A stretch of 64,000 bases of DNA from NCBI GenBank assembly GCA_965204595.1, contig CBDBEW010000014.1:1957207-2021206 (forward strand), written 5' to 3'. Below are positions 17,698 to 38,484 of the stretch, one piece after another (the first letter of the stretch is position 1; every line of letters starts with the position of its first letter). The stretch is from Candidatus Aldehydirespiratoraceae bacterium. Lineage in GTDB: Bacteria; Actinomycetota; Acidimicrobiia; Acidimicrobiales; Aldehydirespiratoraceae. The notes below the pieces were generated by a model that was not told where the DNA came from, ran no database searches, and was given only the letters and a program-made list of their open reading frames with translations. The translations under genes were made by a program, and so were the position numbers.

Positions 17698-18255
17698 TTG
17701 ATGTCTCTGGTTACGAGCGTGAGATCGTGCAGTTTCGAACTCGTCTATCAGCCATTCGGGTGTGTCGCCGAAGTCTGGTTGCTGCAGATCGTGGAGTTGA
17801 CCACGGTGACCGCTGACTCAGGCAACGACGTGAGCTTTCCCTCAGGGTCGACGCAGGTCACTTTGGACGGCACTGGGTCTGTGGTGTCATCTGGTGCCAC
17901 GCCGACTTATCAGTGGACCTAGACAGGAGGAGGCACAGTGACGCTGTCGGGTGCGACCACGGCGCAGCCGAGTTTCGTGCCGCCGACGGCGGTGGGCACC
18001 ACGTTGACGTTCCGGTTGACTGCTACTCATGCTGGTGTGTCGGCTTCTGACACGGTGACGCTCACCGTCGAGGGGTCGGGAGGCAGCGTGATGTCACTCG
18101 GTGGCGTCGTCTCGGGTGGCGCGGTGCAAACCGAGACGGTCAACAAACCCGACGGTGGCACGGCCACGTATTTGCTGATGCGTTTCACCGGCGACGACGA
18201 GTCCCAGGCGATCGGTTACCGACTCTCGTCTCAACCCTCGAACTGCTCGACCTGA
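17698..18255 (+). pseudogene. 5'-truncated fragment of a PKD/Ig-like repeat surface protein with an in-frame TAG
   Basis: The two ORFs 17698-17922 and 17938-18255 share a frame: 'TPTYQWT*TGGGTVTLSGATTAQPSF', with TAG at 17920-17922. PKD-like repeat signature; no start or signal peptide. Confidence 0.6.
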
Positions 18256-18323
18256 TCCGCCGCTACCTAGCAAACTAAAACGACTTTGAGCGTGTTGAGT
18301 CTCAGAAGGTGATGAAGAAGCTT
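18055..18323 (+). repeat. Left copy of a ~250-bp imperfect direct repeat (3' end of the PKD-like gene)
   Basis: Aligns with 19493-19740, for example 'gtgacgctcaccgtcgaggggtcgggaggcag' and 'gaactgctcgacctgatccgccgctacctagcaa'. About 80-85% identity by eye, with a divergent middle. Confidence 0.8.
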
Positions 18324-18420
18324 CATTCGTTTCGGTTGTCTAGGGTCGTGTGTGAAACGGGGGATCGTCGGGTAGCGTTGCTTCGTAGCAATCTGCTACT
18401 GATTTGAACGGAGGTGCTTT

Positions 18421-18798
18421 GTGGCTATGAGTTCGCCCATTCGGATTGATGATGACGTTCATGCTGCGGCGAAACTCATCGCACCGGTTATGAGTCGCAG
18501 CACGGCGCAGCAGATCGCTCATTGGGCGCGTATCGGCCGCGAACTGGAGGCCTCTCGGAGTGTGTCACAGCAATCGATTTTGCGGGTTCTCAGAGGCGAT
18601 GCCTGCTACGACGGCCTAAGCACTGACGAGCAGGCAGTCGTTCGCGCTGAGTGGGTTGAACGCATGACCGAGCGGCGTAAATCGCTCGACTTGGCTGCGG
18701 AGTTCGTCGCTGCGGGGCGCTCGTTCGTAGAACTTGACGAAACCGGCGATATCGTCGAGCACCGACCAGCTGCCGATGCTATTAGGCATACTGCTTGA
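18421..18798 (+). CDS. ParD-like type II antitoxin
   Basis: 125 aa; 'IRIDDDVHAAAKLIAPVMSRSTAQQIAHWARIGRELE' matches the ParD-like family pattern. The stop overlaps the toxin gene region. Confidence 0.7.
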   Translation: MAMSSPIRIDDDVHAAAKLIAPVMSRSTAQQIAHWARIGRELEASRSVSQQSILRVLRGDACYDGLSTDEQAVVRAEWVERMTERRKSLDLAAEFVAAGRSFVELDETGDIVEHRPAADAIRHTA

Positions 18799-18804
18799 CG
18801 GTCT

Positions 18805-19394
18805 GTGTCGGATCCGGTTCTCCATGTTGTCGCCGGGCCAAACGGGCGGGCAAGACAACGTTTGTTGAACGGGTTCTCGGTCCGTTGCCGCTTGAGTTCG
18901 TCAACGCGGACGCGGTCGCCGCGCAACACTGGCCGGGAGACGAGTTGAGCAACGCCTATGCTGCGGCCGAGATTGCGGCTCAACGTAGGGCGGGACTGTT
19001 TGGGCAGCGTCGGTCGTTCGTCACCGAGACCGTGTTTTCGCACGAGTCGAAGGTTGAACTCATTCGTCGGGCCGAGCGAAACGGGTACATTGTTTTGCTT
19101 CACATAATGCTTGTCCCAGAGGATTTAGCTGTTGCCCGTGTAGCGAATCGTGTCGAGAACGGCGGACATGATGTCCCAGAGGAAAAGGTGCGCTCCCGCC
19201 ATCGTCGGCTCTGGACCCATATTGTCGAAGCGATCGCCCTGGTTGCTCAAGCCGATGTCTATGATAACTCCTCGGCTTCGTCGCCGTTCAGACTTCTCGC
19301 GACATTTCGAAACGGAATGCTCGTGAAAGATCTGGATTGGCCGGCTTGGACTCCTCACGAATTGGTAAGCATCCGCCATCGAACAGAGCCTTGA
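18805..19394 (+). pseudogene. Zeta-toxin/AAA-kinase-like toxin, frameshifted inside the Walker A motif
   Basis: GTG 18805 gives 'MSDPVLHVVAGPNG'. The rest ('AGKTTFVERVL...') continues in another frame (the ORF-track ORF 18795-19394). One G is missing in the run at 18844-18846 relative to an intact GPNGAGKTT. Confidence 0.7.
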
Positions 19395-19492
19395 CACCGC
19401 ATCGTCCCTGTGAAAGAGAGTTCGCAAGAAGCCGGTGTCGTGCTGAGCGACCTAGACCTGCCCCGAGAAGTCAACCGGCTGGGTCGCACCCT

Positions 19493-19740
19493 GTGACGCT
19501 CACCGTTGAGGGGTCGGGAGGCAGTGTAACGTCGTTCGGTGGTGTCTTCTCGGGTGCTGCGGTGCGAACTGAGACGGTCAACAAGCCCGACGGTGGCACG
19601 GCGAAGTATTTGTCGATGCGTTATCACAATACGCCAACGGCGACATCACTGCCGACGAACTGCTCGACCTGATCCGCCGCTACCTAGCAAGCTAAAGCAG
19701 CCCTCCACATATGAGGTCCCCGAAGGTGATGAGGAGGCTT
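19493..19740 (+). repeat. Right copy of the ~250-bp direct repeat (second PKD-like gene tail)
   Basis: Encodes 'VTLTVEGSGGSVTSFGGVFSGAAVRTETVNKPDGGTAKY...NCST*', parallel to the copy at 18055-18255. Confidence 0.8.
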
Positions 19741-20077: not shown

Positions 20078-20122
20078 CTGTCGCCGACGGAACGCCGACT
20101 GCGACGGTGGTTTCGTGACCCT

Positions 20123-21652
20123 TTGCGAACTGAGATCGTTGTGGTTGAGATCGATACGATATTGAGAGTGGATGAAGCCGAAGTGGGACATCGATGGGTG
20201 CCGATCGCCGATTTGACAGACGCTGACCGCGCCGCTGCCAGCGAGGAACTGGTGCCACTGCTTCGTACTTGGCGAGAGGCCCGCAAGGAGATACCGGACC
20301 ATCTGGTGACGGAGTTCAACCAGAGGCTGCGGTGCGAGTGGGCCATTGAGACTGGGATCATCGAGTGCCTTTACACGCTTGACGAGGGCACGACGCGCCT
20401 CCTTATCGAACACGGTATCGACGCGTCCTTGATCCCCCCACGATGATGCGGAGACACCTCCGGAACTCGTTGCCGACATGATCGCCGACCACATCGAAGC
20501 CGTCGATTGGTTGTTCGATATCTTTACGAAGGAACGTCCATTCTCGACGTCGTTCGTCCGAGAACTGCATCAACTCATGACTCGCAAGCAGGAGTTCGCG
20601 TCTGGAGTCGATGCCCTCGGGAGAGCCACGCGGATCGAGTTGCTTCACGGCGATTACAAGCGCCGACCGAACAATCCAACTAGACCAGACGGCAAGATCC
20701 ACGAGTACTGCCCTCCAGAGCAGGTCTCCCCCGAGATGGATCGCCTGCTTGAGATGCACAAGGCACACATCAGCACCGGAACTGCGCTAGATGTGAGTGT
20801 GGACTGGTTGCATCATCGTTTCGCGCAGATCCATCCGTTCCAGGACGGCAATGCCCGAGTCGCTCGGACTCTCGCCTCTCTGTCACTCATTCGCGATGGG
20901 ATGTTCCCGTTGGTCGTCACCAACAAGGACCGCGACACTATCTGAAGGTGCTGGGCGAAGCCGACAAGGGATATCTCGCGCCACTAGTTGACTTTGTAGC
21001 CCGGCTGCAGAGAAGGTGGCTGCTGTAGGCTTTGGGGATTACCGGCGCGATGCAGCTTGAGGCTGAGCACCTAGACCAGGTCATTGCGTCTATCGGTGAG
21101 TCTTTCCATCACCGTGAGCAGGTTCTCCGACAGGAGTTGGACACCGCCAAGGAAACAGCCGGGAGGCTACTGGTGGATGCCGTCGAGGTGCTCAACGACA
21201 TCACCGACCGGCTTAAGGAGCAGGTGAGATCAGAGCTCTTTGAGCGAGAGGTCTTCGTAACTTTCAACCACGACAGAGATGCCGGCCGTCGCGGCTACTA
21301 CCGATATCAGGTGATCGACACGGCCAAGCATCTCGAATACTTCGCCAACATGCGCGACTATCACTCTTGGGCGCGGCTCGTCATAGATACCGAGCAGGGA
21401 CGTTCGGAGATCCTTCTCTCCTTTCACGGTGTCAACCGGGAGTATCGCGGCTTGATCGGCGCTTCAGCCTGTTTCTTTCGACATCAGAACGGAGATGTAG
21501 CCGAAGCGCAGATCACTGAGTTGCAGCCCGTGTGCGACGAGATGTTCCAGATAAATTACTCCGAAGACGCTGAGTCCATTCTACGTCGGTTCAAACCGTG
21601 GCTCAATCATGCGTTGTTGCGCGGCCTCGACCAGTTCCGCCGCAGCGAGTAG
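20123..21652 (+). pseudogene. Fic/DOC family protein disrupted by two frameshifts and an in-frame TAG
   Basis: Fic motif 'HPFQDGNARVAR'. There is a +1 in the C6 run at 20434-20439 ('SLIP|HDDAETPPELVADMIADH'), a second shift near 20925-20935 ('NKDRD|YLKVLGEADKGYLAPLV'), and TAG at 21026-21028 in frame with ORF 21032-21652. Confidence 0.75.
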
Positions 21653-22050
21653 CCAACAACCAACACGCGCGTCAGCAGACCATCACACCGACCGAGCCAC
21701 TGGTCGATTATCTCCAGCCAGCAGACAGACAATTTAGAACCAAGCATTGATGACTCTTCGCGAATGAGGGTGGAGTGAGGGTGGTGGCTATCCGCAAGAT
21801 CTTGAGTGTTTTACGCGACGACCATAGAAAAAAATCTAAGTGAAGCTGTCGTCGGTTATAGAGTCGTTGAGCTTCTAGGGCAGGTACCAGCCGTGGTCGT
21901 GGCTCTACAATTTGTGACCCGCTAGCTAAGCAACTCGTAGGTTACGAGCAGGTTACGAGCAGGTTCCTAACGGTTGTATCACGCTGCAGTTCGGGACATT
22001 TGTAACCCAATAGTGAATCTGGGTAACGGCGGAGGTGGTGCGAGAATCTT

Positions 22051-22783
22051 CTACGATCCAAGAAGTTGTCTCGCCCGTTGAGCCACTTCGTTAGATCGAT
22101 CGTGGGGGACGGCCCGAACACCTAGGCTCTCGAATACATACACGGCATCGGTGAACGTCGCAGAGGCCTTTGTTTGCAGTGCCGGGACATAAACCGCTTC
22201 GATTTCCACGTCCTTGCCGACATCGAATTCCTCCGCCGCGGCGAGGATTTGTCCACCAGCGTTGCGAGCCTCCTGGACGGTCCAGTCCCATGCTTTCACT
22301 TCCTCAGCGAGCGTCGCTTGATCAGGGAACTGGAACGACCATGTCTGCGTCAACTGAACCACCCGACCGTTCATAACAGCGAAGTCGAACAATGCATCGT
22401 GATGGACGGTCTTCAAGGTCACACGCTCACGCCGTTCCCTTCCTTTGGTGATTTCAACGTCGTCGTAAGCACGACGCAACTCAGCTAGTGCTGTGTTCTT
22501 CTTGGTTTAGGTTTGCTTACGAACCGCAGGATCAAGTACCATCAGGTCGAAGACTCTGGCTAGTGCATCGTCGGCTGAATCTGCAACCATCGGTGCCGGT
22601 GGGCTTAGCTGCACTATGTTCTGGTGATCGGCGTGGAGACACCACAACCAGTCTTCGGTCAACTCAGTTTTGTCGCACCTGCCACTCAGACGACTCTTCA
22701 CTACCAACGATAGCTCCAACGTTGACGAACTCGCCCCGTGCCGGGTCGGGTACGAAACGGATAAGGGAATAAATGTATCTCAC
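22051..22783 (-). pseudogene. DUF3037-like protein disrupted by a frameshift and an in-frame TAA
   Basis: SD AAGGAG then GTG (22783-22781) gives 'MRYIYSLIRFVPDPARGEFVNVGAIVGS', a DUF3037-type N-terminus. The frame changes within 22666-22719. TAA at 22509-22507 separates two same-frame ORFs. Confidence 0.6.
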
Positions 22784-22829: not shown

Positions 22830-23903
22830 GTGGGGCTTGCCGACCGGATTCGTCATGAAATAGCTATGCACGGGCCTCTTGCGGTGTCGGAGTATCTGCG
22901 GTTGGCGCTTTATGACGAGAAGGGAGGGTTTTATCAGCAAGGCGGACGTGCCGGTCGAAAAGGAGACTTTTTGACCTCGCCCGAGGTGGGTCCGCTATTT
23001 GGTGCTGTGATCGCAAATGCGATCGATATATGGTGGCGAGATTGTGGCGAACCGCGCGAGTTCACGGTTTTTGAGTGGGGGGCTGGGCCCGGTACTCTAG
23101 CGAGGTCGGTGCTTGCTGCTAACCCCGAGGTTCTTCAGCATCAAGCATTGCGTTGGTATGCGATTGAGCGGTCGGCGCAGCAGCGCAGTCTTCACCCGAA
23201 ACATCCCTTGTTGAGTTCTGTGGCGGATGCGCCAACACACACGGTGGCGGCTGGTTTGGTGTTGGCTAATGAGTTTTTGGACAATTTGCCTTTTGATTTG
23301 TATCAACGCCGCGGTCAAAGCTGGGTTGAATTGCGTGTTTCCAACCACCACAATCAACGAGACTTTGTTCTTGTAGGGGCTGCGGCACTAGATGCTTCGT
23401 CGCCGCTAACCGAGGAGCTCAACAGTCTTTTTGATGGCTCGCTACCAGATGGGGTGCAGGTTGTTTACCAAAGAGCAGCGCAGGAATGGTTAACGCAGGC
23501 GTTGGGGTCGTTGATTGAGGGTAGGGTGGTGGTGTTTGACTACGCCGACACCACACCTGAGCTCGCCGCTCGTGGTTCCTGGGTCAGATCTCATGCGAAC
23601 CATAGCCGTCTTGGTGCGGGTGATTGGTTGTTGAACCCTGGGGCTTGCGACATCACTGCCGATGTGGCGATAGACCAGCTTGAGTTGGTTCGTAAAGCCG
23701 ATTTCAATCGTTCACAGAGAGCTTTCTTGCAGTACTTTGGCATAGACGAGTTTGTTGAGCAGGGGAGGCAACGCTGGCAAGCCACCGCACATGTTGGTGA
23801 TCTGGCAGCGTTGCGGGGTCTTAGTCGCGTTAGTGAGGCAAAAGCGTTGTGTGATCCCGATGGTTTGGGCAGCTTCCGTGTGCTTGAATGGCTAGGAGAG
23901 TAG
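22830..23903 (+). CDS. MidA/NDUFAF7-family SAM-dependent methyltransferase (DUF185)
   Basis: 357 aa; 'GPLAVSEYLRLALYDEKGGFYQQ' and 'GDFLTSPEVGPLFG' are hallmarks of the MidA family. Host-like GC. Confidence 0.75.
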   Translation: MGLADRIRHEIAMHGPLAVSEYLRLALYDEKGGFYQQGGRAGRKGDFLTSPEVGPLFGAVIANAIDIWWRDCGEPREFTVFEWGAGPGTLARSVLAANPEVLQHQALRWYAIERSAQQRSLHPKHPLLSSVADAPTHTVAAGLVLANEFLDNLPFDLYQRRGQSWVELRVSNHHNQRDFVLVGAAALDASSPLTEELNSLFDGSLPDGVQVVYQRAAQEWLTQALGSLIEGRVVVFDYADTTPELAARGSWVRSHANHSRLGAGDWLLNPGACDITADVAIDQLELVRKADFNRSQRAFLQYFGIDEFVEQGRQRWQATAHVGDLAALRGLSRVSEAKALCDPDGLGSFRVLEWLGE

Positions 23904-23926: not shown

Positions 23927-24931
23927 ATGCCGACGGGACGCGCTAGTGTGGGGGGATGCCTGGACCAACCCAACAGCGCGGCGAAGGGCATTTTATGCTG
24001 GAGCGAGTTCGAAGACGAACAGACTGGGGCGGACGATATTGCAAACTGGGTGACGCGATTGGTCGATTCTGGGATGCCTGCCGAAGCTCTAGCACACGGT
24101 GAGCCGAGTGCTTTGAACGCCGAGGACATCGCTGTGCTGGCGCGTACTGGCACCGCTCTCAACGCGACCTCGGAGGCGCTCATTGACCGCGGGCACGAGG
24201 TCGCACTCTCTCACAAGGACAGCGAACTCATGTCCAGTCGGCTCGGCACGGTGGCATTAGAGTTGATGCGTTCCCACAGCGACCGTCACCACACGCTGGC
24301 CGTGGCGGCTCTGGCTAGAGACTTCGGTATCGATCTGTCAGCCTCAGTCGACCAGACTAACGGTGCATCCTTGAGCATTTCGAGCGATGCGCTTCGGTCG
24401 GCCGATGATGAGAATTTCGTCGTTCTTGAACCGCTATTATCGACCGACGCGCCAGAATTCTTCATTGAAGCACTTAAGGACTGCCAACTAGCTGAGGACG
24501 AGAACATCAAGCTGTTAGCAAACTGGAACGCCGACTGCAATCTTGTCACGAACGCATGGTCAGAGTTCACCAACATCACGCCCGTCGCAGAACGTTCATG
24601 GACACGTTTCGTCTTACACTTCGAGCGAATGGCCCGCGGACGCGATCTCGGGCCAGGCGTGCGCCTCCTCACAGTACACAAGGCGCAAGCACGTGAGTTC
24701 AAAGCGGTGGCCATCGTTGGGATGAACGACGGGCAGTTCCCCGACTTCCGCGCCGAGTCACCTGCCGAGAAGCAAGCCGAGTTGCAGACGTTCCACGTGG
24801 CGGTCACGAGGGCTTCACGGATCCTGCGGCTTACACGCGCCCGCACACGCCCGACTCGCTACGGGGACCGTACAACAGATCCGTCACCGTTTCTGCAACT
24901 TGCATGCGACGCGGAGCATGCCGACTCGTAG
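23927..24931 (+). pseudogene. UvrD-like helicase, C-terminal portion only (ATPase N-terminus missing)
   Basis: 'VRLLTVHKAQAREFKAVAIVGMNDGQFPDF...TFHVAVTRASRILRL' corresponds to helicase motifs V/VI. No Walker A or motif I-II region lies upstream. Confidence 0.6.
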
Positions 24932-25099: not shown

Positions 25100-25306
25100 A
25101 TGCCCAGCGATCATACGCGCCCAGGCCAGCACCACGGCGTTGATCACCAACCGAGCAGATCGCCTGCCACCGCGATCCGTAGTGCCGCTCATTATCGAGC
25201 ACCATCCTCACTGCCCGCTCACGCAGCTCGGCCGGATATCTTCTGGTGTTTGTCATAACTCCATCCACTCGAGTAAAAGAGTCTTCAACAAAACTTGGGT
25301 GATTCA
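25100..25306 (-). mobile_element. IS3-family left-end remnant (terminal repeat plus 5' part of orfA)
   Basis: On the minus strand, 'TGAATCACCCAAG...' (end at 25306) is followed by ATG 25256: 'MTNTRRYPAELRERAVRMVLDNERHY', a typical IS3 OrfA HTH. Similarity is lost after about 50 codons, and there is no orfB. Confidence 0.55.
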
Positions 25307-25383: not shown

Positions 25384-25620
25384 ATGAACACGACGACGAT
25401 CCGGGTTGACCGCGACACTCACGCTCGACTCCTTGAGATCAGCGAGGCGAACGGCGATACGCTCACGAAAACGGTTCGCGATGCCACCGAGGCGTTAGAA
25501 CGTCTCCGCTTCGGCTTGCGGGTGCAAGAACAGATTGCCGCGCTACAGAGCGATCCCGATGCCTGGAGGGATTACCTCGCTGAAGCCGAAACGTCTTCGG
25601 TCACCGATGGCATCTGTTGA
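25384..25620 (+). CDS. Ribbon-helix-helix antitoxin (MazE-like)
   Basis: 78 aa; 'TTIRVDRDTHARLLEISEANGDTLTKTVRDA' is an RHH N-terminus. Overlaps the toxin start by 14 nt. Confidence 0.7.
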   Translation: MNTTTIRVDRDTHARLLEISEANGDTLTKTVRDATEALERLRFGLRVQEQIAALQSDPDAWRDYLAEAETSSVTDGIC

Positions 25621-28011: not shown

Positions 28012-28245
28012 CTAGTCAAGAACATGCCGCGAGGTGTGGCACTGGAACTGCCAGACCGCAACGAACCAGACCGAGGTATTTCCTTCGTCGTCCGAAGAGA
28101 CGCGTGACCGGGGGAACTCTCCTTCCGTCGGACCTGCGGGCACTCTTGCTTGCTCAAGCCAGTCCCAAAAGGCGGGGCAGAAGTCAAAGCCGTAGTGGTC
28201 TCTCTTGGCGCGAATGAACACATCTGAGTCGAGCAGATAAGCCAC
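28012..28245 (-). pseudogene. Truncated DUF4411-type PIN-like protein
   Basis: 'MAYLLDSDVFIRAKRDHYGFDFCPAFWDWLEQ' matches the DUF4411 N-terminus. The family pattern is lost after about 35 aa, and the ORF is about half the expected length. Confidence 0.5.
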
Positions 28246-29399
28246 TACAGCACCTCAAGCTGTTGTCCGAGTCTCTCGAAAGTGGCCATTTTCTTGAGAT
28301 GGAGCAGGCGGAAAGCCTGGGAATATGTGGTTCTGCCCTCGAGAGTGCTGGCAATCAGCGCACGGGTGAAGTGCTTCCCCACCTGTACTGGTTTGGTGTT
28401 GTAGAAGTTGCCGCCTTTGCCTCTCAGCACCGCGATGTCAGCGATGCGTTCGCTCTCCGCCTGCAGTGCGTCCATCAACTGGTCCCATGAGAGCATCCCA
28501 GCTTTCCGCATACGAATGAGGACTACTTGCGTGCTCACCCGGAACTCGGTGGCTAAAGGTTGTAACTGGTCGCGAACCCAAGATCTAGATTTAGTTCGGA
28601 CTGGAACTCTGCCATCGGCACCAGTAGTTCGGCTGCTACTTGATTGCACCAGCGTTCTTGTTCGTGATGTTGAGAAGATCGTGGGTCAAGGTCGGACATT
28701 GCCGTTTCGCCAAGCCAGATATGTGCCAGTTCATGGGCCAACGTGAACAATTGAGCGGCCTTGGAATCCGAGCCGTTCACGAACACCACCGGCGCATGGG
28801 GGTCGGCGAGGGCAAAGCCGCGAAACTCCGCCGGATCCAGTTTGCGGTGTGTATTGGATCCGACGATTCCACTAATCATTACGAGCACGCCAATCTCCTC
28901 CGCACTTTCGCGCAAACGTGTGAGGGCACTGTCAGAACTCGTGCATTTCTGGCGGGTTGATATCGTCCAGTTGAGGAATCGACGCATTCGTTCGGCTGTC
29001 CTCTCCGGCGGGGAAGCGAGGGTTGCGCTAGCGACGAAGTCAAGCGGTTGTTCGTTGTTCAAGAGTTGATGGTCGCGATACCATTCTTGGCGTGCTTGGC
29101 ATGTATACACCGTGTCGAGGAGGTCGGCGGTCGGCGGTCGGTGCCACCGGACGGTCGCCTACCGTATGGAAGTCGGGAATCGGCACACCCTCGGTTGGTG
29201 GTTCATCGAGAAAGAAGTGTCCGACCGGCGTGTAGGTCCTTTTGGCGAATTCCTCAACCTGCTTCAACGTCGGTGTCTTCGCTCCGCTCATCCAGGCTTC
29301 GTAGTGAGGAAAGCGTTTGCTCCAGACTTTGTCGTCGATCCCCGAACGGGTCCGCGCCCATGAGAGCAAACTAGAGGAGACCTCCACGCGGACTGTCAT
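28245..29399 (-). pseudogene. HTH-ImmA/IrrE zinc metallopeptidase split over three frames
   Basis: N-terminal HTH ('TPTLKQVEEFAKRTYTPVGHFFL'), then 'ADLLDTVYTCQARQEWYRD...FTLAHELAHIWLGE' (HExxH) in a second frame, then '...LATEFRVSTQVVLIRMRKAG' in a third. Shifts lie near 29110-29160 and 28600-28650. Confidence 0.7.
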
Positions 29400-29533: not shown

Positions 29534-29947
29534 TCAGGTCGCCACGACATCGACCAGGCCCTCGAGTGCTTCGAAATCGTCGGGATTGCGGGTGTAGAGA
29601 GGGAGTTGTGCGGCGAGGGCGGTCGCCGCGATGAGCAGGTCGACGGCGCGGGCTCCGCGAGGTTTGCGTCCTGCGCCGGCGACAGCGGCGAAGACGCGGC
29701 CGTAGGCGCGGGCTGTGTCGGCGTCGAAGGGGAGAGGGTCGAAGGTGGCTTCGGTCCGTTAGAGCCGGTCTTGGCGGCGGCTGCGTTCGGCGGGGTCGTT
29801 GGTGGCGTTTGGGCCGGCGGCGAGTTCGGCGAGGGTGATCGAACTGATGGCGACCTCGATCGGAAGGAGGTTTGCCGGGATGGCTTAGAGGTCGATGACG
29901 ACCGAGGTGTCCAGCAGGCCGCGCGCGGGGCGCTCGTTGTCAGGCAC
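29534..29947 (-). pseudogene. vapC: VapC PIN-domain toxin with two in-frame TAA codons
   Basis: GTG 29947: 'VPDNERPARGLLDTSVVIDL*AIPANLL...RRQDRL*RTEATFDPLPFDADTARAYGRV...DLLIAATALAAQLPLYTRNPDDF'. TAA at 29887-29885 and 29761-29759; a single frame throughout. Confidence 0.75.
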
Positions 29948-30194
29948 GAGGTGTGATAGTTTGCTCGGCGAAGTCGTCGAGGTCGCCGCGGAGACGGTCG
30001 TCGTCGACCGCGGGGGCGGTCCGGAACAACTCGACGGCAGCCTCGGCGCGGACGAAGCGTCGCCGGCGCAGAGGGGTGAGTTCGCCGACCGGTTCACCGT
30101 TGCGGGTCACGATGAAGGTCTCACCCTCGCCAAGGGCGCGCATGATGCACCCGCTGTCGTTCCGAAGCTCTCGCTGGTTGATCTCACTGCTCAT
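29940..30194 (-). CDS. Phd/YefM-family antitoxin
   Basis: 84 aa; 'INQRELRNDSGCIMRALGEGETFIVTRNGEPVGELTPL'. 8-nt overlap with vapC. Confidence 0.75.
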   Translation of the reverse strand: MSSEINQRELRNDSGCIMRALGEGETFIVTRNGEPVGELTPLRRRRFVRAEAAVELFRTAPAVDDDRLRGDLDDFAEQTITPRA

Positions 30195-30635
30195 GGTCGG
30201 CAGTGTAGCACGGCGTGCTACGGAACTGGCAGGCGGTCCGACTGCATCGGCGTCAGCTCACACTCAGAAGCCCAACCCAACCGCTCCGATGGCGGGGGGT
30301 TAAGGGGCTGTTCGCGACCGCTGGACCGCCGGCGCGACGCCCAACCGCCGTCAGGACCGGACAGTGCCCCCCACAGCCGTCGCGCCCGATGCCGGCTTCC
30401 AGAACGCGCCCGACACCGACCCGGCCCTGGCGGTGAACCGGCAATGGTTGAGCGAGGCACTGGCGGCATCTGACATCGAGCCTCGGGCACCCTTGGTCGA
30501 TGCCGTCAGCGAGATCGACGCGGCCCTCGAATCCGTGCGAGGCACCCTGTCACACCAGGTTCGCAGGTGATGGAGGCCGGGTGAGGTGGCACTGCAATCA
30601 GCCCCACCGACGGCGGCCGGACCCTCCAACCACCA

Positions 30636-31427
30636 TCAGGGGTTCAGGTGCGAGGTCCGCTTGCCCGCAGCGGATCCGAGGTCGTTCGAGATCTGATTCG
30701 CAAGGCGCCGGACGGTTCGGGCGGCGTCGATCAGTGAGCCCTCGAATCGGAACTTCGGGGCAGTGATGCCGAGCGCAGCCACCGCCACGCCAGAAGGGCC
30801 GCGAATCGGTGCGGAGCAGCCGACGACGCCCTCCTCGAACTCGTCGATGACAATCGAGTAGCCGGCCTCTCGGGCACGGGCGACTTCTGCCGCGAACTTC
30901 GTAGGGGTCGTGCATCGCAGCCCGGGAGCTTCGGCGATGCGTACGGGGGTGAGCCACGCGGCGGCGAGTTCGGGCGGTTCGGTCGCGAGGATCGCCCGAC
31001 AGGTCGAGCTGCCGGCGGCCGGGCCGGCCGCTCCGACGCGGGCATACGGTGCGAGCGCATGCCGCGATGCCTCTGAGGCGATGATGATCGTCTCGTCCGC
31101 GCGGAGCACGACGACCTCAGCCGTCTCGCCGTAGGCCGAGGCGAGCTGTCGGAGGTAGGGGCGGCTCGCCGCAGCGACATGCGATTCGAGGCTCTGCGCT
31201 GCGATGGTGTGTATGCGCCACCCGATCACGTAGCCCCGCGACGTGGCGTCGCGATCCAGAATGCCCGCATCGGCCAAGGTCGAGAGAGCCCGTGAGATCT
31301 GGCTCTTGTCTCGTCCGGTCTGTGCGGCCAAGTTGCTGACCGAGCTCGGTGCGCCGTCGGCAGCGACGATGTGGTCGAGGAGTTCGAGGTCTCGGCTCAG
31401 TCCAGCTGCGTTCTTCCGGGCTGCCAT
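30636..31427 (-). CDS. IclR-family transcriptional regulator
   Basis: 263 aa from ATG 31427: wHTH 'SVSNLAAQTGRDKSQISRALSTLADAGIL' plus an IclR effector domain. Divergent from the oxidoreductase operon. Confidence 0.8.
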   Translation of the reverse strand: MAARKNAAGLSRDLELLDHIVAADGAPSSVSNLAAQTGRDKSQISRALSTLADAGILDRDATSRGYVIGWRIHTIAAQSLESHVAAASRPYLRQLASAYGETAEVVVLRADETIIIASEASRHALAPYARVGAAGPAAGSSTCRAILATEPPELAAAWLTPVRIAEAPGLRCTTPTKFAAEVARAREAGYSIVIDEFEEGVVGCSAPIRGPSGVAVAALGITAPKFRFEGSLIDAARTVRRLANQISNDLGSAAGKRTSHLNP

Positions 31428-31553
31428 ATGCGCACATCCTAGAAAGCTGTTGCCATATATACAACTCTTCTTGTGTTTTGCTGAGGGGCCGGCTACGATG
31501 CCCTCAGAGTGGCTACGGACTTCTAGCCCGCGAGAAAGGTTGAGGAACTCAGG

Positions 31554-34082
31554 ATGCGAGACCACCCACGAGTCGTGGTCGTCGGCGGAGGCGTCGTCGG
31601 CGCCAGTGTGCTCTACCACCTGACCAAGAATGGCTGGACCGACGTTGTCCTACTCGAACGAACCGAACTCACCGCCGGTTCGACCTGGCACTCGGCCGGT
31701 GGCATGCACACCCTCAACGGCGACCCCAACGTCGCCAAGCTCCAGCAGTACACGATCGAGCTGTACAAGGAGATCGAGGCACTGTCCGGGCGGGACTGCG
31801 GGATTCACCTGACCGGCGGACTGATGCTCGCCGACAGCGAGGAGCGCATGGACTGGCTTCGGATGGCCCACGCTCGCGGCCGCTACCTCGGGATGGACAC
31901 CGAGCTCATCAGCGTTGCCGAGGCAAAGAAGCTCATGCCGCTGCTCGAGGAGGAGTACTTCGTGGGCGCGATGTACGACGCCCACGAGGGTCACGTCGAC
32001 CCCTCCGGCGTGACCCACGCCTACGCCCAATGCGCCCGAGACAACGGTGCTGCCATTTACCGCAACAGTTGGGTCCGCTCGCTGGCCCGTACAGCCGAGG
32101 GATGGGACGTCGAGGTCATCGAGACATCCAGCGGCGAGGTGAAGGGAACCATCAGCTGCGAACACGTCGTCAACGCCGGTGGACTCTGGGCACGCGAGGT
32201 CGGCCGGATGGCCGGTGTCGAACTGCCAGTTCTGGCCATGGAGCACATGTATCTCCTGACCGAGGACATCCCGGCGATCGCCGACTACAACACCGAACAC
32301 GGTGAGGTCCTGCACTGCATCGACTTCGGCGGTGAGATCTACATGCGTCAGGAGGGCGGCGGGCTCCTGCTCGGGACCTACGAGCAGGGCGGTAAGCCGT
32401 GGTCGGTGGAGGAGACCCCGTGGGATTTCGGCATGCGGCTCCTAAGCCCCGACCTCGACCGCATCGCGGAGTCTCTCGACGTGGGCTTCCGGCATTTCCC
32501 TGTGTTCGAAGAAGCGGGCATCAAGCAGGTCATCAACGGCCCGTTCACCTTCGCTCCCGACGGCAACCCATTGCTCGGTCCGATCCGCGGCCTTCCCGGT
32601 TTCTGGAGTGCCTGCGCGGTCATGGCCGGACTCAGCCAGGGCGGCGGGGTCGGTTTGTCGCTCGCCAACTGGATGACCGACGGCGACCCCGGCTTCGACG
32701 TCTGGGGGATGGACGTCGCCCGCTACGGCGACTTCGCGACCCGCCGATACACGAGCGAGAAGGTGCAGGAGAACTACAGCCGTCGGTTCCGCATCCAGTT
32801 CCCCAACGAGGTGCTCCCCGCCGCTCGGCCGCTCGAGACCTCGCCGATCTACGACCGTCTCGTCGCCGAGAACGCGGTCTGGGGCGACGGGTACGGGCTC
32901 GAAAGCGCTCTGTGGTTCCAGAAGCCCGGCCTCGAGCCGGTCGAGGAGGTCACGTTCGGCCGTTCCAATGCCTGGGATTCGGTGCGCGAAGAGGCCCTAG
33001 CCGTTCGCAATGGCGTCGGGGTGATGGAGACGACCGGCTTCGCCAAGTTCGTCTTCACCGGCGCGGATGCGCGGAGCTGTCTCGACTCGATCATCACCAA
33101 CCGGCTTCCGGGACCTGGCCGGATGGTGCTGGCGCCGATGGTGAACCACAACGGCAAGCTCATCGGCGACCTCACCGTCGCATGTCTCGGCCCGACCCCC
33201 GGCGAACTCGCCGGCCCGCGCACCACAACGACTGGCGGCGCGACCCAGAACACGGGGCACCAGGAACGCTTCGTCGTCTTCGGGTCGGGCGTGGCCACGC
33301 GCTTCTACGAGCGCTGGTTCGATCAGACGATCCCGTCGGAGGCTGATGTCACCTATACAACGTTGGGCTGGGACCTCTGTGGTCTCGCCATCGCCGGCCC
33401 GCGATCGCGGACCCTGCTCGAACGGCTCACCACCACCGACGTGTCCGGTGAGGCGTTCCGATTCATGGACTTCCGTCAGCTCGACCTCGGCCCGATCCCC
33501 GTGTGGTGCGGACGGGTATCGTTCTCCGGAGACCTCGGCTACGAGTTCTGGATGTCGTCGAGCCGCCAGCGAGCGGCCCTCGACCTCCTCCAACGTGAAG
33601 GGAGCGACCTCGGACTTCGCCTGTTCGGCCTGCACGCGCTCGACTCCCTTCGCCTCGACAAGGGATTCGGCACGTGGGGTCGCGAGTACCGGCCCATCTA
33701 CGACCCGTTCGAGGCCGGCCTCGAGCGATTCGTCAAGCTCGACAAGGGCGAGTTCATCGGCCGCGACGCGCTAGCCGAAGCCCACGAGGCGGACCCCGAA
33801 CGACGGCTGCTCACCTGGTCTGTCGACACCGAAGGCGGCCGCGACGGCGCCGACGTCATCGGCGACGAACCCGTCTGGTACGACGGCGTGGTCGTCGGCT
33901 GGGTCACCTCGGGCGGCTACTCGCACCACATGGACACCTCGGTGGCCATGGGCTACGCGCCTGCCCGCCTGGCAGATGCGCCTGGGCAGTTCGAGATCGA
34001 GATTCTCGGCGTCCGGAGGGCCGCGACCCTCGTCGACGGCTGTCTCTGGGACCCCGAGGGGCAACGAATGAGGAAGGGGTAA
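31554..34082 (+). CDS. FAD-dependent dehydrogenase fused to a GcvT-like folate-binding domain (dimethylglycine/sarcosine dehydrogenase family)
   Basis: 842 aa; 'VVVVGGGVVGASVLYHL' dinucleotide fold, and a C-terminal aminomethyltransferase-like region ('GYEFWMSS...LDSLRLDKGF'). Confidence 0.8.
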   Translation: MRDHPRVVVVGGGVVGASVLYHLTKNGWTDVVLLERTELTAGSTWHSAGGMHTLNGDPNVAKLQQYTIELYKEIEALSGRDCGIHLTGGLMLADSEERMDWLRMAHARGRYLGMDTELISVAEAKKLMPLLEEEYFVGAMYDAHEGHVDPSGVTHAYAQCARDNGAAIYRNSWVRSLARTAEGWDVEVIETSSGEVKGTISCEHVVNAGGLWAREVGRMAGVELPVLAMEHMYLLTEDIPAIADYNTEHGEVLHCIDFGGEIYMRQEGGGLLLGTYEQGGKPWSVEETPWDFGMRLLSPDLDRIAESLDVGFRHFPVFEEAGIKQVINGPFTFAPDGNPLLGPIRGLPGFWSACAVMAGLSQGGGVGLSLANWMTDGDPGFDVWGMDVARYGDFATRRYTSEKVQENYSRRFRIQFPNEVLPAARPLETSPIYDRLVAENAVWGDGYGLESALWFQKPGLEPVEEVTFGRSNAWDSVREEALAVRNGVGVMETTGFAKFVFTGADARSCLDSIITNRLPGPGRMVLAPMVNHNGKLIGDLTVACLGPTPGELAGPRTTTTGGATQNTGHQERFVVFGSGVATRFYERWFDQTIPSEADVTYTTLGWDLCGLAIAGPRSRTLLERLTTTDVSGEAFRFMDFRQLDLGPIPVWCGRVSFSGDLGYEFWMSSSRQRAALDLLQREGSDLGLRLFGLHALDSLRLDKGFGTWGREYRPIYDPFEAGLERFVKLDKGEFIGRDALAEAHEADPERRLLTWSVDTEGGRDGADVIGDEPVWYDGVVVGWVTSGGYSHHMDTSVAMGYAPARLADAPGQFEIEILGVRRAATLVDGCLWDPEGQRMRKG

Positions 34083-34088
34083 CCACCC

Positions 34089-35411
34089 ATGACCAACGAG
34101 AACAGCTACGACGCCATCATCATTGGTGCGGGCGTCATCGGCGCCGCCATCGGCTACGAACTCGCCAAGGCCGGCCGCCGGACGCTCAACATCGACAAGC
34201 TCCCGGCCGCCGGATACGGATCGACGAGCAGCACGTGCGCCATCATCCGCTTCAGCTACAGCACCTACGACGGGGTGGCCATGGCGTGGGAGGGGCAGCA
34301 CTACTGGGTTGATTGGCGCGACTACCTCGGTGGCGACGTCGACGAGCGTGGACTGATCGACTTCGTTCAGTGCGGCACCGCCCTGCTCAAGAAGTCCGGC
34401 GGGCACTCGCACCACGAGAAGGTCGTGCCGCTGCTCACCGAGCTCGACATTCCGTTCGAAGACTGGGACCTCGACACGCTTCTCGACCGCCTCCCGGCCC
34501 TGAACGGATCCGTGTTCGGCCCACCGAAGCGTCCCGACGACGACGAGTTCTGGGCCGAGCCGACCGAACAGCTGCTAGGCGCCGTGTGGACCCCTGACGC
34601 CGGATACATCTCGGACCCTCAACTCTCGACGCACAACCTCCAGCGCGCCTGCGAGAGCGTCGGCGGCGAGTTCGTCTTCAACACCGAGGTCACTGCGATC
34701 AAAGCGACCGACAATCGCGTCACCGGCGTCACGCTGTCGACCGGCGAGACGATTTCGGCTCCCGTCGTCGTGAATGTCGCCGGTCCCCACAGCTTCGTCG
34801 TGAACCGCATGGCCGGCCTCGAAGGCACCATGAACATCTCCACCAAGGCGCTCCGCCACGAGGTGCACCACGTGGCCTCACCCGAAGGCGTCAACTACGG
34901 CTCGACCGGCTGTCACGTACAGGACGGCGACACCGGCATCTATTTCCGTCCCGAATCCGGCGACAACATTCTCATCGGCTCCGAAGACCCCGACTGCGAC
35001 CCGCAGGAATGGATCGAGGATCCCGACAACTACGACACCGAGGTGTCCCACGCGCAATGGGAGGCCCAGGTCCTCCGGCTCGCCCGGCGCATGCCCGACC
35101 TCGGAGTGCCCAGTGTCAAGCGCGGCGTCGTCGACCTCTACGACGTCGCCGACGACTGGATTCCGATCTACGACAGGACCGATCTGGGCGGGTTCTACGC
35201 AGCGATCGGTACGTCGGGCAACCAGTACAAGAACGCCGGCGTCGCGGCCGCGGCCATGGCAGAGCTCATCGATGCGGTCGAGAGCGGCCACGATCACGAT
35301 GCCGAGCCCGTGGTCCACGTCGGTCGCTACACCGGACTGGAGATCGACATGTCGAGCTTCAGCCGGAATCGTGCGATCAACCCCGACAGCAGCTTCTCGG
35401 TGAACGGCTAG
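34089..35411 (+). CDS. FAD-dependent oxidoreductase (DAO / sarcosine-oxidase-beta-like)
   Basis: 440 aa; 'YDAIIIGAGVIGAAIGYELAKAG'. Confidence 0.7.
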   Translation: MTNENSYDAIIIGAGVIGAAIGYELAKAGRRTLNIDKLPAAGYGSTSSTCAIIRFSYSTYDGVAMAWEGQHYWVDWRDYLGGDVDERGLIDFVQCGTALLKKSGGHSHHEKVVPLLTELDIPFEDWDLDTLLDRLPALNGSVFGPPKRPDDDEFWAEPTEQLLGAVWTPDAGYISDPQLSTHNLQRACESVGGEFVFNTEVTAIKATDNRVTGVTLSTGETISAPVVVNVAGPHSFVVNRMAGLEGTMNISTKALRHEVHHVASPEGVNYGSTGCHVQDGDTGIYFRPESGDNILIGSEDPDCDPQEWIEDPDNYDTEVSHAQWEAQVLRLARRMPDLGVPSVKRGVVDLYDVADDWIPIYDRTDLGGFYAAIGTSGNQYKNAGVAAAAMAELIDAVESGHDHDAEPVVHVGRYTGLEIDMSSFSRNRAINPDSSFSVNG

Positions 35412-35426
35412 CAGGTCCGGCAAGCA

Positions 35427-36635
35427 ATGCGCCGAACCGATTTCTACGAACAACTCGAGGGAACGCTCGACGGCATCCGAACCGACGGCCTCTGGAAACA
35501 TGAACATGAACTGGTTTCTCCACAATCGGGAGAGATCACGCTGGGTGAGACGGGAACCCGCATCAATCTCTGTGCGAACAACTACCTCGGCCTGGCCGAC
35601 GATCCGAGTGTCATAGCGGCAGCCAAGGACACGATGGACCGCCTCGGTCACGGCATGGCGTCCGTGCGCTTCATCTGTGGCACGACAACAGAACACTGTC
35701 TTTTAGAGGACGACATCGCGACCTACCTCGGAACCGACGCCGCCATCACCTTCGCCGCGTGCTTCGACGCCAACGCTGCGGTATTCGAGCCGCTGCTCGG
35801 CGCCGCCGACGCCATCGTCAGCGATTCGCTGAACCACGCGTCGATCATCGACGGTGTCCGACTGTCGAAGGCGAGGCGGTACCGCTTCGCCACTCGGGAC
35901 ATGACCGATCTGCGCACCCAACTCGAAGCGGCCCGGGCCGAGGGCGACGGGGCGGTCCTGATCGTGACCGACGGGGTGTTCTCGATGGACGGCCACCTCG
36001 CCGATCTCGCCGCCATCTGTGAGCTCGCAGATGCGTTCGACGCGCTGGTGATGGTCGACGATTGTCACGCCACCGGACTCATCGGACCGGGTGGTCGTGG
36101 AACACCGACCCACTTCGAGGTCGCAGATCGCGTCGACATCGTCACGAGCACCCTCGGCAAGGCCCTCGGCGGTGCGATGGGCGGCTTCGTCGCAGCTCGT
36201 CGGCCCATCGTCGATCTGCTCCGCCAACGGGGCCGCCCGTATCTCTTCTCGAACGCACTGTCACCAGCACACGTCGGAGGTGCACGCGAGGCGATACGAA
36301 TTGCCGCCACCAGCGACGACCGCCGCGAACGCCTGATGCGCCACGCGCAACGATTCCGTTCGGCCATGACCGCAGCAGGGTTCGAGCTGACCGGAGCCGG
36401 CCACCCGATCGTTCCGGTCATGTTCGGCGATGCGACGGAGGCCGTGTCGATGGCAGAACGCGTGATGGAGTTGGGCGTCTACGTGACCCCATTCTCGTTT
36501 CCGGTCGTTCCCCACGGTCAGGCCCGCATTCGCACCCAGATGAGCGCCGCCCTTACCGATGATCACCTCGATACGGCGATCGAGGCGTTCACACGGGCCG
36601 CAGACGACCTCGGCATCGAGCGGAGCCCGCGGTGA
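35427..36635 (+). CDS. kbl: Glycine C-acetyltransferase (2-amino-3-ketobutyrate CoA ligase)
   Basis: 402 aa class-II aminotransferase; 'NNYLGLADDP', 'DDCHATG', 'STLGKALGG' (PLP lysine). Overlaps tdh. Confidence 0.85.
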   Translation: MRRTDFYEQLEGTLDGIRTDGLWKHEHELVSPQSGEITLGETGTRINLCANNYLGLADDPSVIAAAKDTMDRLGHGMASVRFICGTTTEHCLLEDDIATYLGTDAAITFAACFDANAAVFEPLLGAADAIVSDSLNHASIIDGVRLSKARRYRFATRDMTDLRTQLEAARAEGDGAVLIVTDGVFSMDGHLADLAAICELADAFDALVMVDDCHATGLIGPGGRGTPTHFEVADRVDIVTSTLGKALGGAMGGFVAARRPIVDLLRQRGRPYLFSNALSPAHVGGAREAIRIAATSDDRRERLMRHAQRFRSAMTAAGFELTGAGHPIVPVMFGDATEAVSMAERVMELGVYVTPFSFPVVPHGQARIRTQMSAALTDDHLDTAIEAFTRAADDLGIERSPR

Positions 36636-37660
36636 GAGCACTGATCAAGTCGGGCCCGGGACCAGGTCTCGAACTCGTCGAGTGGCCGGCCCCGGCGGTC
36701 GGACCGAACGACGCCGCGATCGCTGTCAGACGAGCGGCGATCTGTGGCACCGACCTCCACATCTTCGATTGGGACGACTGGGCCGCAAGCGAAGTCGTGA
36801 CACCGGTGACGGTGGGCCACGAGTTCTTCGGCGTCGTCGAAGCCGTCGGCGACCAGGTGAGTGGTATCGAGATCGGCGAGCGGGTCGCTGGTGAGGGGCA
36901 TCTGACGTGCGGAACCTGCCGCAACTGCCGCGCAGGGAGGCAGCATCTGTGCCGAAACACCATCGGCGTGGGCATCCACCGCGACGGCGGATTCGCCGAC
37001 CTGGTCGCGATCCCGGCGTCGAACGTCTACCGCGTACCTGATGAGATCGAGGACAACGCCGCGGCGATTCTCGACCCGCTCGGCAATGCCGTGCACACCG
37101 CCCTCTCGTTCGACCTCGTCGGCGAGGACGCGCTGATCACCGGCGCTGGACCCATCGGTCAGCTGGCGGCCGGCGTGGCCCGCCTCGCCGGCGCCCGCCA
37201 TGTGGTCGTCACCGACACCGTCGAGGACCGGCGCAACAATGCTCTGCGAATGGGCGCGTCGCTCGCCGTTGAACCGGGGGTCGAATCGCTCGAGTCGGCC
37301 ATGGCTGAGCTCGGGATGCGCGAAGGATTCGACGTCGGTCTCGAAATGTCCGGCCACGGTGCTGCACTCGACGACTTGATTTCGGTCATGAACCACGGTG
37401 GGCGCATCGCACTGCTCGGACTCTACGGCCGACGGCCCGACATCGACATGAACGCGCTCATCTTGAAGGGTCTGACGGTGAAGGGAATCTACGGCCGAGA
37501 GATGTTCGAGACCTGGTACAAGGCAACCGCTCTGCTCACTGCGGGTCTCGACGTCTCGCCGGTCGTCTCCCACGTGCTGCCGCTGGAGGACTTCGACGAA
37601 GCTTTCGATCTCGTCCGCACCGGCCGAGCGAGCAAGGTGGTCTTCGACCTCGGGGCCTGA
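36632..37660 (+). CDS. tdh: L-threonine 3-dehydrogenase
   Basis: 342 aa Zn-ADH; 'AICGTDLHIF', 'GHEFFGVV', 'CGTCRNCRAG'. The kbl-tdh pairing supports the call. Confidence 0.85.
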   Translation: MRALIKSGPGPGLELVEWPAPAVGPNDAAIAVRRAAICGTDLHIFDWDDWAASEVVTPVTVGHEFFGVVEAVGDQVSGIEIGERVAGEGHLTCGTCRNCRAGRQHLCRNTIGVGIHRDGGFADLVAIPASNVYRVPDEIEDNAAAILDPLGNAVHTALSFDLVGEDALITGAGPIGQLAAGVARLAGARHVVVTDTVEDRRNNALRMGASLAVEPGVESLESAMAELGMREGFDVGLEMSGHGAALDDLISVMNHGGRIALLGLYGRRPDIDMNALILKGLTVKGIYGREMFETWYKATALLTAGLDVSPVVSHVLPLEDFDEAFDLVRTGRASKVVFDLGA

Positions 37661-37689
37661 GCGGGCCAAAGAGACGCATGAGCGGAAAG

Positions 37690-38141
37690 ATCCTCAACTC
37701 CATGGAGGCGCTCGCACCAGAAGTAGTGGACGCAGGCTCGGAGTTGCATCGTCTGATCCTCGGCCGAAAGTCCACGGTCTCGTGTTGCTGGATCGTTTTC
37801 CGCAGGAATCTAACGGTGCTCAGCTTTGCTTTGCACCACTTCTGCGGGACTCCCTCGCATTCACACACGAATACTCACTGAATTCACTCCACCGTCAATC
37901 GTGAAGGGCCGTTTTCCTGACCGGCATGGAGGACGGTGTCCTCCCGCACATCCGGACCTTGGGCGAACCGCGGGAATTCGAGGAGGAGCGGCGGCTGGCG
38001 TATGTCGGGGTCACCAGAGCCATGCAGTCGCTTCATCTGACGTGGGTCAAGAGCCGCATGCTCAACGGCACGACCCAGTACAATCCGCCCAGCCGGTTAT
38101 TACATGCTGTTTGGCAATTGGAACCGATTGACGAGTGGTGA
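37690..38141 (+). pseudogene. 3' remnant of a PcrA/UvrD-type helicase
   Basis: '...[56 protein letters not shown]...PSRLL' is the motif V/VI region with an in-frame TGA. Upstream sequence is degenerate; the 5' extent is uncertain. Confidence 0.55.
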
Positions 38142-38170
38142 TGTATCGCAATATGTCATATATTATAGAC

Positions 38171-38484
38171 GTGACGCAGGCGGTCTCGGTTCGCCTTGGT
38201 GATGAAGCTACAAAGGCGCTGGGCATCCTTGAGGCATCCAGGCTGAGTCGCTCCGAGGCTATCCATTCCTCACTGGTCGAGGGCGGCGAGGCGGAGGCTC
38301 GGTCGCGCCGCTCTAGCCGCTGAAGCGGCGAAGCTGGAAGCCGACGAGGCGGATCGATCCGAGATGCTCGCTGTCGCAGAGCTGATGGAGTCGATGCGTG
38401 CTCCATGGTGATGTCTACCAGTTCAAGCTTCCGATCCGATCTCTATGCCGCGCAACGCCACACCGCTTATGCTTGGTATGGTGA
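38171..38484 (+). pseudogene. mazEF-like remnant: frameshifted RHH antitoxin plus a 28-codon toxin stub
   Basis: 'VSVRLGDEATKALGILEA...AIHSSLVE' then, after an extra G near 38281-38283, 'AARRRLGRAALAAEAAKLEADEADRSEMLAVAELMESMRAPW*'. GTG 38398 gives 'MLHGDVYQFKLP...', which ends after 28 codons. Confidence 0.5.

Follow-up and report, generated by a model that had tools for sequence, protein, structure and literature searches.

We analysed a stretch of 64,000 nucleotides from contig CBDBEW010000014.1 (assembly GCA_965204595.1), assigned to a Candidatus Aldehydirespiratoraceae bacterium. The whole stretch is referred to below as the window, and coordinates are counted from its first letter. Between 17.0 and 40.5 kb it holds genes of toxin-antitoxin (TA) and phage-defence type, many of them interrupted, which lie between nuoN, a gene for a MidA-type methyltransferase and an HD-domain gene. 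A preliminary description, made from the letters alone, had catalogued the interruptions and proposed that toxins and conflict genes are selectively dead. We find that the lesions, taken as a set, are real mutations, that they are young, and that they are situated in foreign accessory DNA. A selective inactivation of toxins is not supported statistically, and the stretch is most probably a horizontally acquired TA/defence island in ordinary erosion rather than the site of a targeted toxin purge.

The NuoN protein of the window is 86-89% identical to proteins of metagenome-assembled genomes labelled Ca. Aldehydirespiratoraceae, Acidimicrobiaceae or Acidimicrobiales. In a blastn comparison of the window with 80 related loci the conserved backbone consists of the nuo operon (6.5-17.0 kb), the methyltransferase gene (22.8-23.9 kb), which directly follows nuoN in several relatives, the HD-domain gene (40.5-41.4 kb) and further core genes from 55.6 kb on; all DNA between these backbone genes is variable. 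The core genes of the window (1-17017, 22830-23903 and 40545-42165), all of them intact, have a GC content of 49-55% and a GC content at third codon positions (GC3) of 0.47-0.54; in the variable stretches the values are 57-66% and 0.65-0.85. Since the GC content of the core is lower both than that of the variable stretches and than that of the core regions in most relatives (58-64%), the decaying TA/defence stretch is compositionally foreign accessory DNA.

The features of the locus are listed in Table 1. Twelve small lesions were confirmed by intact homologues or by a sister lineage: six nonsense codons, five single-base insertions or deletions (indels) and one 7-nt tandem duplication. Larger lesions, which the earlier catalogue did not contain, are the deletion of gajA and part of gajB, a truncated DUF4411 gene, a MazF stub of 12 codons, the loss of a HipA_2 kinase gene and a Gly-to-Ala change in Fic. 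The sister lineage is represented by the contigs L082/L083 and L084/L085 (one metagenome, two assembly pipelines), which are syntenic with the window and share 85-94% nucleotide identity with it, depending on the segment; dS between the two lies at 0.11-0.17 in most genes and reaches 0.27 in the short mazE.

Table 1. Genes and remnants of the window, with their state in the sister lineage where the two were compared (ORF, open reading frame).
Feature	Position	Strand	State in the window	State in the sister lineage
PKD-domain gene fragment, copy 1	17783..18281	+	TAG 17920-22; internal deletion of ~665 nt; weak K319L-like PKD Pfam match	
ParD-like antitoxin	18421..18798	+	intact ORF, 125 aa; PF11903, E=5e-12	
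Zeta/AAA_33-type toxin pseudogene	18805..19394	+	1-nt deletion 18845/46 inside Walker A, between GPNG and AGKT	
PKD fragment, copy 2	19488..19740	+	direct repeat of 18050-18323; matches L084 341-474 and 1160-1243	
Fic pseudogene	20198..21652	+	nearly full-length; +1 C at 20434; -1 at 20935; TAG 21026-28; GGC to GCC at 20853-55	short remnant
DUF3037 (PDC-M66B-like, antitoxin-type) pseudogene	22054..22783	-	nearly full-length; ~43-codon deletion and frame change ~22670-22685; TAA 22507-09	short remnant
MidA/NDUFAF7-type methyltransferase	22830..23903	+	PF02636; core gene, island boundary; dN/dS 0.21	
Gabija GajB C-terminal remnant	23927..24931	+	334-aa ORF; PADLOC GajB model 307-621/625; Gabija deleted	Gabija intact
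IS3-family OrfA remnant (presumed)	25200..25244	-	~38 codons with RRYPAELRERAVRMV motif, just upstream of mazE; weak HTH_Tnp_1 match	
mazE	25384-25620	+	intact; 14-nt overlap with mazF	
mazF	25607-25945	+	intact; PemK model 4-109/109	
hipB	26241-26600	+	intact; full-length HTH_3 match	
hipA	26597-27904	+	intact; full-length Couple_hipA and HipA_C matches	internal deletion of ~811 bp (L082)
DUF4411 (PIN-like toxin) remnant	28147..28245	-	~33 N-terminal codons; PF14367 model 1-31/159	other piece, model 78-150 (L082/L083)
HTH-ImmA/IrrE (M78 peptidase) pseudogene	28248..29399	-	two frameshifts: 7-nt tandem duplication CCGACCG 29135-29141; 1-nt deletion ~28578	nonsense codon (TAG, window CAG)
VapC (PIN) pseudogene	29537..29947	-	two nonsense codons: TAA 29885-87 and 29759-61	frameshift and 3' deletion
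Phd/YefM-type antitoxin	29940..30194	-	intact ORF, 84 aa; PF02604 24 bits, below gathering score; TIGR01552 weak	5' half lost (L082)
Block of IclR regulator, DAO-GCV_T dehydrogenase, DAO oxidoreductase, aminotransferase and Zn-dependent alcohol dehydrogenase	30636..37660	.	intact; GC 65%	absent from L082
UvrD/PcrA helicase C-terminal stub	37887..38141	+	in-frame TGA 37902-37904; UvrD_C model 302-349/350	
RHH-type antitoxin pseudogene	38153..38411	+	+1 G in GGG run 38281-83	
MazF-like toxin stub	38398-38433	+	12 codons, after RHH pseudogene	
Hma system (predicted)	within 42339-54649		HmaA SNF2 helicase, 1132 aa; HmaB methylase, 909 aa; HmaC ATPase, 978 aa	

Every codon and run of the preliminary catalogue is present at its coordinates, and alignments of the reconstructed proteins to intact homologues bear out that the continuous frames correspond to single proteins. 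The families assigned agree with matches in Pfam: ParD_like, Zeta_toxin/AAA_33, Fic, DUF3037 (divided between two frames), Methyltransf_28, PemK, HTH_3 with HipA, Peptidase_M78, DUF4411, PIN, Phd (a weak match) and UvrD_C. Homologues or the sister contigs confirm the PKD, zeta, VapC and ribbon-helix-helix (RHH) lesions and all three of those in Fic. Three entries were corrected. The ImmA gene does contain two lesions, the first within the range given earlier, but the second lies just outside the proposed interval of 28600-28650. The in-frame stop of the helicase stub exists, but not at ~37890. In DUF3037 the TAA stands, and the supposed shift within 22666-22719 is a deletion with a change of frame. 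The nonsense codons were also said to fall where homologues would carry Gln, Glu or Lys; this holds for PKD (Gln) and VapC (Glu and Gln) and partly for Fic (Gln or Arg), but not for DUF3037, where the TAA falls on a conserved Phe. The ORFs described as intact, namely the ParD-like and Phd antitoxins, mazEF, hipBA, the four metabolic genes and those of island 3 (42339-54649), are so, and to them the IclR gene is added.

The ParD-like gene lies directly upstream of a P-loop kinase toxin gene, and this pair (PF11903 with Zeta_toxin/AAA_33) is found in five related species. The ParD-like protein is collinear with the 121-122-aa orthologues of these species, with a ratio of nonsynonymous to synonymous substitution rates (dN/dS) of 0.08-0.21. 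In the zeta gene the single-base deletion is the sole indel in a 1-kb alignment with the five intact orthologues, which read VSDPVLHVVAGPNGAGKTTF; the Walker A motif (GxxGxGKT) of the window ORF is not intact, and the frame from the GTG at 18805 stops after 47 codons. Downstream of the lone frameshift the zeta frame is open and conserved (dN/dS 0.10-0.13), and the repaired protein matches AAA_33 over positions 1-137/143 as well as Zeta_toxin. The cassette is bracketed by a direct repeat of ~290 bp (18050-18323 and 19488-19740; families D1, D2 and D5, 84-98% identity), the unit of which is the 3' part of a PKD-domain pseudogene that had already undergone deletion. Copy 1 of the PKD fragment has 85% nucleotide identity to an ORF of >408 aa on L084, where its TAG is CAG (Gln). 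A tblastn search with the L084 PKD protein as the query found no further PKD copies in the other loci. In the five related species ParD-zeta stands directly after the methyltransferase gene, unlike its location between PKD repeats in the window.

The reconstructed Fic protein (509 aa) aligns without gaps to single proteins of ~495 aa (E=7e-275, 85% identity, 95-98% coverage). Compared with the closest gene, it has an extra C at 20434 and has lost a G at 20935, outside any homopolymer. In the catalytic motif HPFQDGNGRVAR Gly is replaced by Ala, which changes the invariant GNGR, found in 8/8 aligned homologues, to GNAR; the motif of the window reads HPFQDGNARVAR and departs from the pattern HxFx(D/E)GN(G/K)RxxR. 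Fic stands without a neighbouring antitoxin gene, and therefore its label as a toxin is an assumption. The Fic region (window 20152-21660) is 85% identical at the nucleotide level to a copy beside nuoA in another species (L081 9955-11463), the nuo operon of which is only 73% identical to that of the window. This contrast suggests that related bacteria have recently exchanged the Fic gene horizontally. More than 2200 homologues belong to the family, some of them in the sponge symbionts Ca. Poriferisodalis.

The homologues of DUF3037 are ~290 aa long, and two different frames of the window correspond to their residues 1-38 and 82-287, hence ~43 codons are deleted. Its N-terminus matches PDC-M66B, and the ~290-aa homologues are encoded directly after a HipA_2 kinase gene (L088/L089). 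The preliminary description grouped DUF3037 with the conflict genes; in the PDC-M66 / DS-6 system its reported role is to neutralise a toxin, the HipA_2 kinase (PMC12548924). The window resembles this system in the match of the N-terminus and in the gene order of the homologues, but differs from it in that it has no kinase gene and that DUF3037 itself is broken by a deletion and a nonsense codon; the system is therefore absent. The start of DUF3037 and the methyltransferase gene are only ~45 nt apart, we found no remnant of the HipA_2 kinase, and the kinase is missing from the window and the sister lineage with an identical junction beside the methyltransferase. PADLOC gave no match for the DUF3037 C-terminal domain, HipA, the DUF4411 remnant or the fragments at 21610-22121. 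The 142-aa gene call P0361 (window 22051-22479, minus strand) is merely the tail of the DUF3037 pseudogene.

In the Gabija region a clean deletion of 2,732 bp between 23962 and 23963 has removed gajA and the first 299 codons of gajB, so that the window has neither GajA nor a full-length GajB. Both genes are intact on the sister contig L084 (5226-8932; GajA 614 aa, GajB 621 aa). The remaining part of gajB has dN/dS of 0.24.

The reconstructed ImmA protein (382 aa) has 93% and 78% identity to single proteins of 382-393 aa, and its two lesions were called against a sister contig that is 94% identical. The HELAH sequence (HExxH) is present, yet the two frameshifts and the truncated DUF4411 gene leave no intact copy of the predicted TA-like pair ImmA-DUF4411. 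In L082 of the sister lineage the VapC stop at 29885 corresponds to GAG (Glu) and the one at 29759 to CAA (Gln); when both stops are mended, and only then, the protein scores above the threshold of the PIN model (44 bits, model 2-117/120). We also considered that VapC might be an artefact of a 234-aa 'PcrA_UvrD_tudor' ORF on the opposite strand of L082. This was rejected: the Tudor part does not align to the window, and the repaired VapC scores far over the PIN threshold. The antisense gene call itself (L082 4699-5403, minus strand) lies over the VapC/Phd remnant, is annotated through its Tudor domain and is misleading. The assignment of the RHH pseudogene is made because an intact 85-aa homologue from a metagenome (L086) aligns across the 38281-83 shift with 68% identity and is followed by a MazF-like toxin of 105 aa; the repaired protein has no match in Pfam or NCBIfam, and a PDB sequence search gave chance matches only. 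HTH-ImmA and RHH count as antitoxin-type genes because they lie upstream of DUF4411 and MazF-like genes.

Two TA modules are complete. In mazEF a full-length PemK/MazF toxin is predicted after an overlapping small antitoxin gene, with dN/dS against L084 of 0.06 for mazE and 0.27 for mazF; MazE has no Pfam or NCBIfam profile match. The sister mazEF is intact over the part covered by L084, where the mazF ORF runs off the contig end. The OrfA remnant beside mazE, which we take to belong to the IS3 family, is also present on L084 (93% nucleotide identity) and may be a trace of the arrival of the mazEF cassette. The hipBA module is predicted to be complete from the matches of its products to HTH_3, Couple_hipA (2-98/99) and HipA_C (1-210/213).

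Comparison with the sister lineage reveals the same genes broken in different ways (Table 1). Since the two do not have these lesions in common, most of the lesioned genes were probably intact in the common ancestor of the window and the sister lineage, and the low dN/dS agrees with this. We sought signs of relaxed selection, as expected of old pseudogenes, in dN/dS, but ImmA (0.31), Fic (0.17) and zeta do not differ from the functional neighbours (0.14-0.34). The lesions are thus young, younger than the split from the sister lineage. Between the PKD gene and the Fic remnant, L084 (1287-2914) has a DUF262/GmrSD_N (NsnA-like) gene and a 173-aa partner gene, neither of which is in the window; therefore the site took up different cassettes in the two lineages.

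To compare toxins with antitoxins, the small lesions were counted per codon still present, with zeta, VapC, Fic, MazF and HipA taken as toxins and ParD, Phd, MazE, HipB, ImmA and RHH as antitoxins. The toxins carry 6 small lesions in 1375 codons (4.4 per 1000) and the antitoxins 3 in 873 (3.4 per 1000; binomial P=0.51). Counted by genes, 5/7 toxins and 2/6 antitoxins are dead (Fisher's exact P=0.29), and adding DUF3037 to the antitoxins weakens the contrast further. ParD and Phd together have only 209 codons, and the chance of both being free of lesions is P=0.43. Among seven pairs both members are intact in two, only the toxin is dead in two, both are dead in three and only the antitoxin is dead in none; in the two discordant pairs, length alone would make the toxin the dead partner with P=0.38. 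Hence, the proposal of selectively dead toxins stands as far as zeta and VapC are dead beside intact antitoxins, but there is no bias per codon, and three antitoxin-type genes (ImmA, RHH and DUF3037) are dead as well. Intact conflict genes (MazF, HipA and the whole Hma system) and dead genes unrelated to conflict, such as the PKD-domain gene, are also found in the window.

We suggest that the 17.0-40.5 kb part of the window is a mosaic accessory island, in which TA and phage-defence cassettes would have been gained horizontally by a marine member of the Acidimicrobiales with a low-GC genome, in the neighbourhood of Ca. Aldehydirespiratoraceae. These cassettes would now decay under weak or absent selection together with the usual bacterial deletion bias, so that nonsense mutations, slippage indels, the 7-nt duplication and deletions that span hundreds to thousands of bases may strike toxins, antitoxin-type genes, Gabija, helicases and the surface-protein gene alike. 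As is well known, an antitoxin can be lost only once its toxin has been disabled. The order of loss within each pair might be set by this addiction logic, with the toxin lost first because loss of the antitoxin is impossible as long as the toxin works. In such a scheme mazEF and hipBA would represent the stage with both members intact; parD-zeta and phd-vapC the stage with a dead toxin and an open antitoxin frame; and immA-DUF4411, RHH with the mazF stub, and DUF3037 with its deleted HipA_2 kinase the stage with both members dead. The states of the pairs fit the toxin-first decay, and the numbers are too small to demonstrate it. We infer both the relaxed selection on the island and the toxin-first order as the cause of these states.

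It is very unlikely that the interruptions are sequencing or assembly errors in functional genes. The preliminary description held that error competes as an explanation for homopolymer indels and fails for nonsense stops; this is right, with six nonsense codons found where it had counted five. Error could be supposed for the single-base indels in short G or C runs (zeta 18845, Fic 20434 and RHH 38281), the more so as zeta and RHH have no second lesion and zeta has no sign of relaxed constraint. It cannot, however, account for the six nonsense substitutions, the 7-nt duplication, the two single-base deletions outside homopolymers and the deletions from ~130 bp to 2.7 kb. The intact ORFs of the window, 49.6 kb with 22 homopolymers of at least 6 nt, contain no frameshift, and the 5.5 kb of pseudogenes contain six small indels, three of the six outside homopolymers. 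Error fails as an explanation because most lesions lie outside homopolymers, the intact ORFs are free of frameshifts, and the separately assembled sister lineage has the identical genes broken at other positions. It is even more doubtful, to the point of being hardly credible, that the interrupted genes are expressed by programmed frameshifting or stop-codon read-through. Nothing specific speaks for recoding apart from the zeta frame being open and conserved past its single frameshift; TAG, TAA and TGA all occur as in-frame stops, the orthologues are uninterrupted at these sites, the lesions are lineage-specific, and an Rfam scan of the window found tRNA only, with no element in the lesioned region. 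Recoding was thus rejected.

That toxins and conflict genes are selectively inactivated and that selection retains the antitoxins, for instance to provide anti-addiction immunity when related toxins arrive (an idea that reportedly comes from Saavedra De Bast et al. in 2008), seems to us unlikely. The open ParD-like and Phd frames beside dead zeta and VapC would agree with it, as would the lack of any live toxin with a dead antitoxin, the two separate nonsense codons of VapC, the three lesions of Fic on top of its catalytic-motif change, and the independent inactivation of the same modules in two lineages after long constraint. However, toxins and antitoxins have equal numbers of lesions per codon, both intact antitoxins are short enough to have escaped by chance, the antitoxin-type ImmA, RHH and DUF3037 are dead, MazF, HipA and Hma are intact, and genes outside conflict systems are dead too. 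The pairs with both members dead and the truncated Phd of the sister lineage also argue against a lasting retention of orphan antitoxins. A related scenario, to which we give slightly less credit still, is that selection would actively favour the loss of toxins and defence genes in a lineage whose genome is shrinking, with orphan antitoxins kept for a time against related toxins that circulate among bacteria of the same habitat; its basis is the dN/dS of only 0.2-0.3 across dS of ~0.15, combined with recent independent inactivation in two lineages, the AT-shifted core and a source contig shorter than the chromosomes of relatives. Ordinary erosion remains our preferred explanation, and several points weigh against it. 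The sole change in zeta and in RHH is one base in a G run, so both lesions might be sequencing errors; the extra C in the C run of Fic is equally open to error, but the two further Fic lesions are not. The pair states, with two toxins alone dead and no antitoxin alone dead, lean towards the selective idea in a sample that is too small. The low dN/dS means constraint until recently, and independent recent losses in both lineages could indicate active selection for loss. Finally, the ancestral states and the earlier activity of the genes are deduced from one sister lineage known from short contigs.

Comparable cases are known. For Klebsiella pneumoniae, Horesh et al. (2020, PMC7192599) described degrading TA pairs from which orphan antitoxins originate. 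In these loci, as in the window, antitoxin ORFs keep their original genetic context next to toxins that are disrupted or missing; unlike there, decay in the window is documented lesion by lesion with a sister outgroup, antitoxin-type genes decay as well, and there is no sign that orphans are maintained. The island also resembles defence islands in the clustering of TA modules, Gabija (GajA, GajB), Hma, GmrSD-like and restriction-like genes (systems as defined in PADLOC) between core genes, and in a content that differs between genomes ~92% identical; it differs in that much of it is pseudogenised. Rapid gain and loss of cassettes is a general concept for such islands. Pseudogenes accumulate in bacteria that are restricted to a host or are reducing their genome, for example Mycobacterium leprae. 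The many young pseudogenes of the window and its core shifted towards AT relative to relatives are similar, but its core genes are all intact; the comparison with M. leprae covers this window only. Judged within the same window, this may be a lineage whose composition moves towards AT and whose genome is shrinking. The source contig has a length of 2.06 Mb, and chromosomes of relatives have 3-4.6 Mb.

Decaying TA modules, orphan antitoxins and the quick turnover of defence islands are already well documented, and this case alone matters little. Its value is that of a clean worked example: one stretch of 23 kb and a sister lineage display every stage of TA decay, with lesions that can be dated after the split. 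It also calls for caution, as the impression that toxins die and antitoxins survive can stem from the shortness of antitoxins alone. For annotation we note that several short called ORFs are fragments of pseudogenes (the 142-aa DUF3037 piece and the 334-aa GajB piece) or, as with those over VapC, antisense ORFs.

Two stretches of the window have a GC content of 65%. One is a block of 8.4 kb (30071-38454) that comprises the IclR gene, the four metabolic genes, the helicase stub and RHH. The sister contig lacks this block; in its place L082 (3490-4939) holds an AbiEi_1 gene and a UvrD Tudor-domain remnant. The other, island 3, is predicted to be an intact Hma-type defence system, and it also encodes a 707-aa protein that resembles a type II restriction enzyme.

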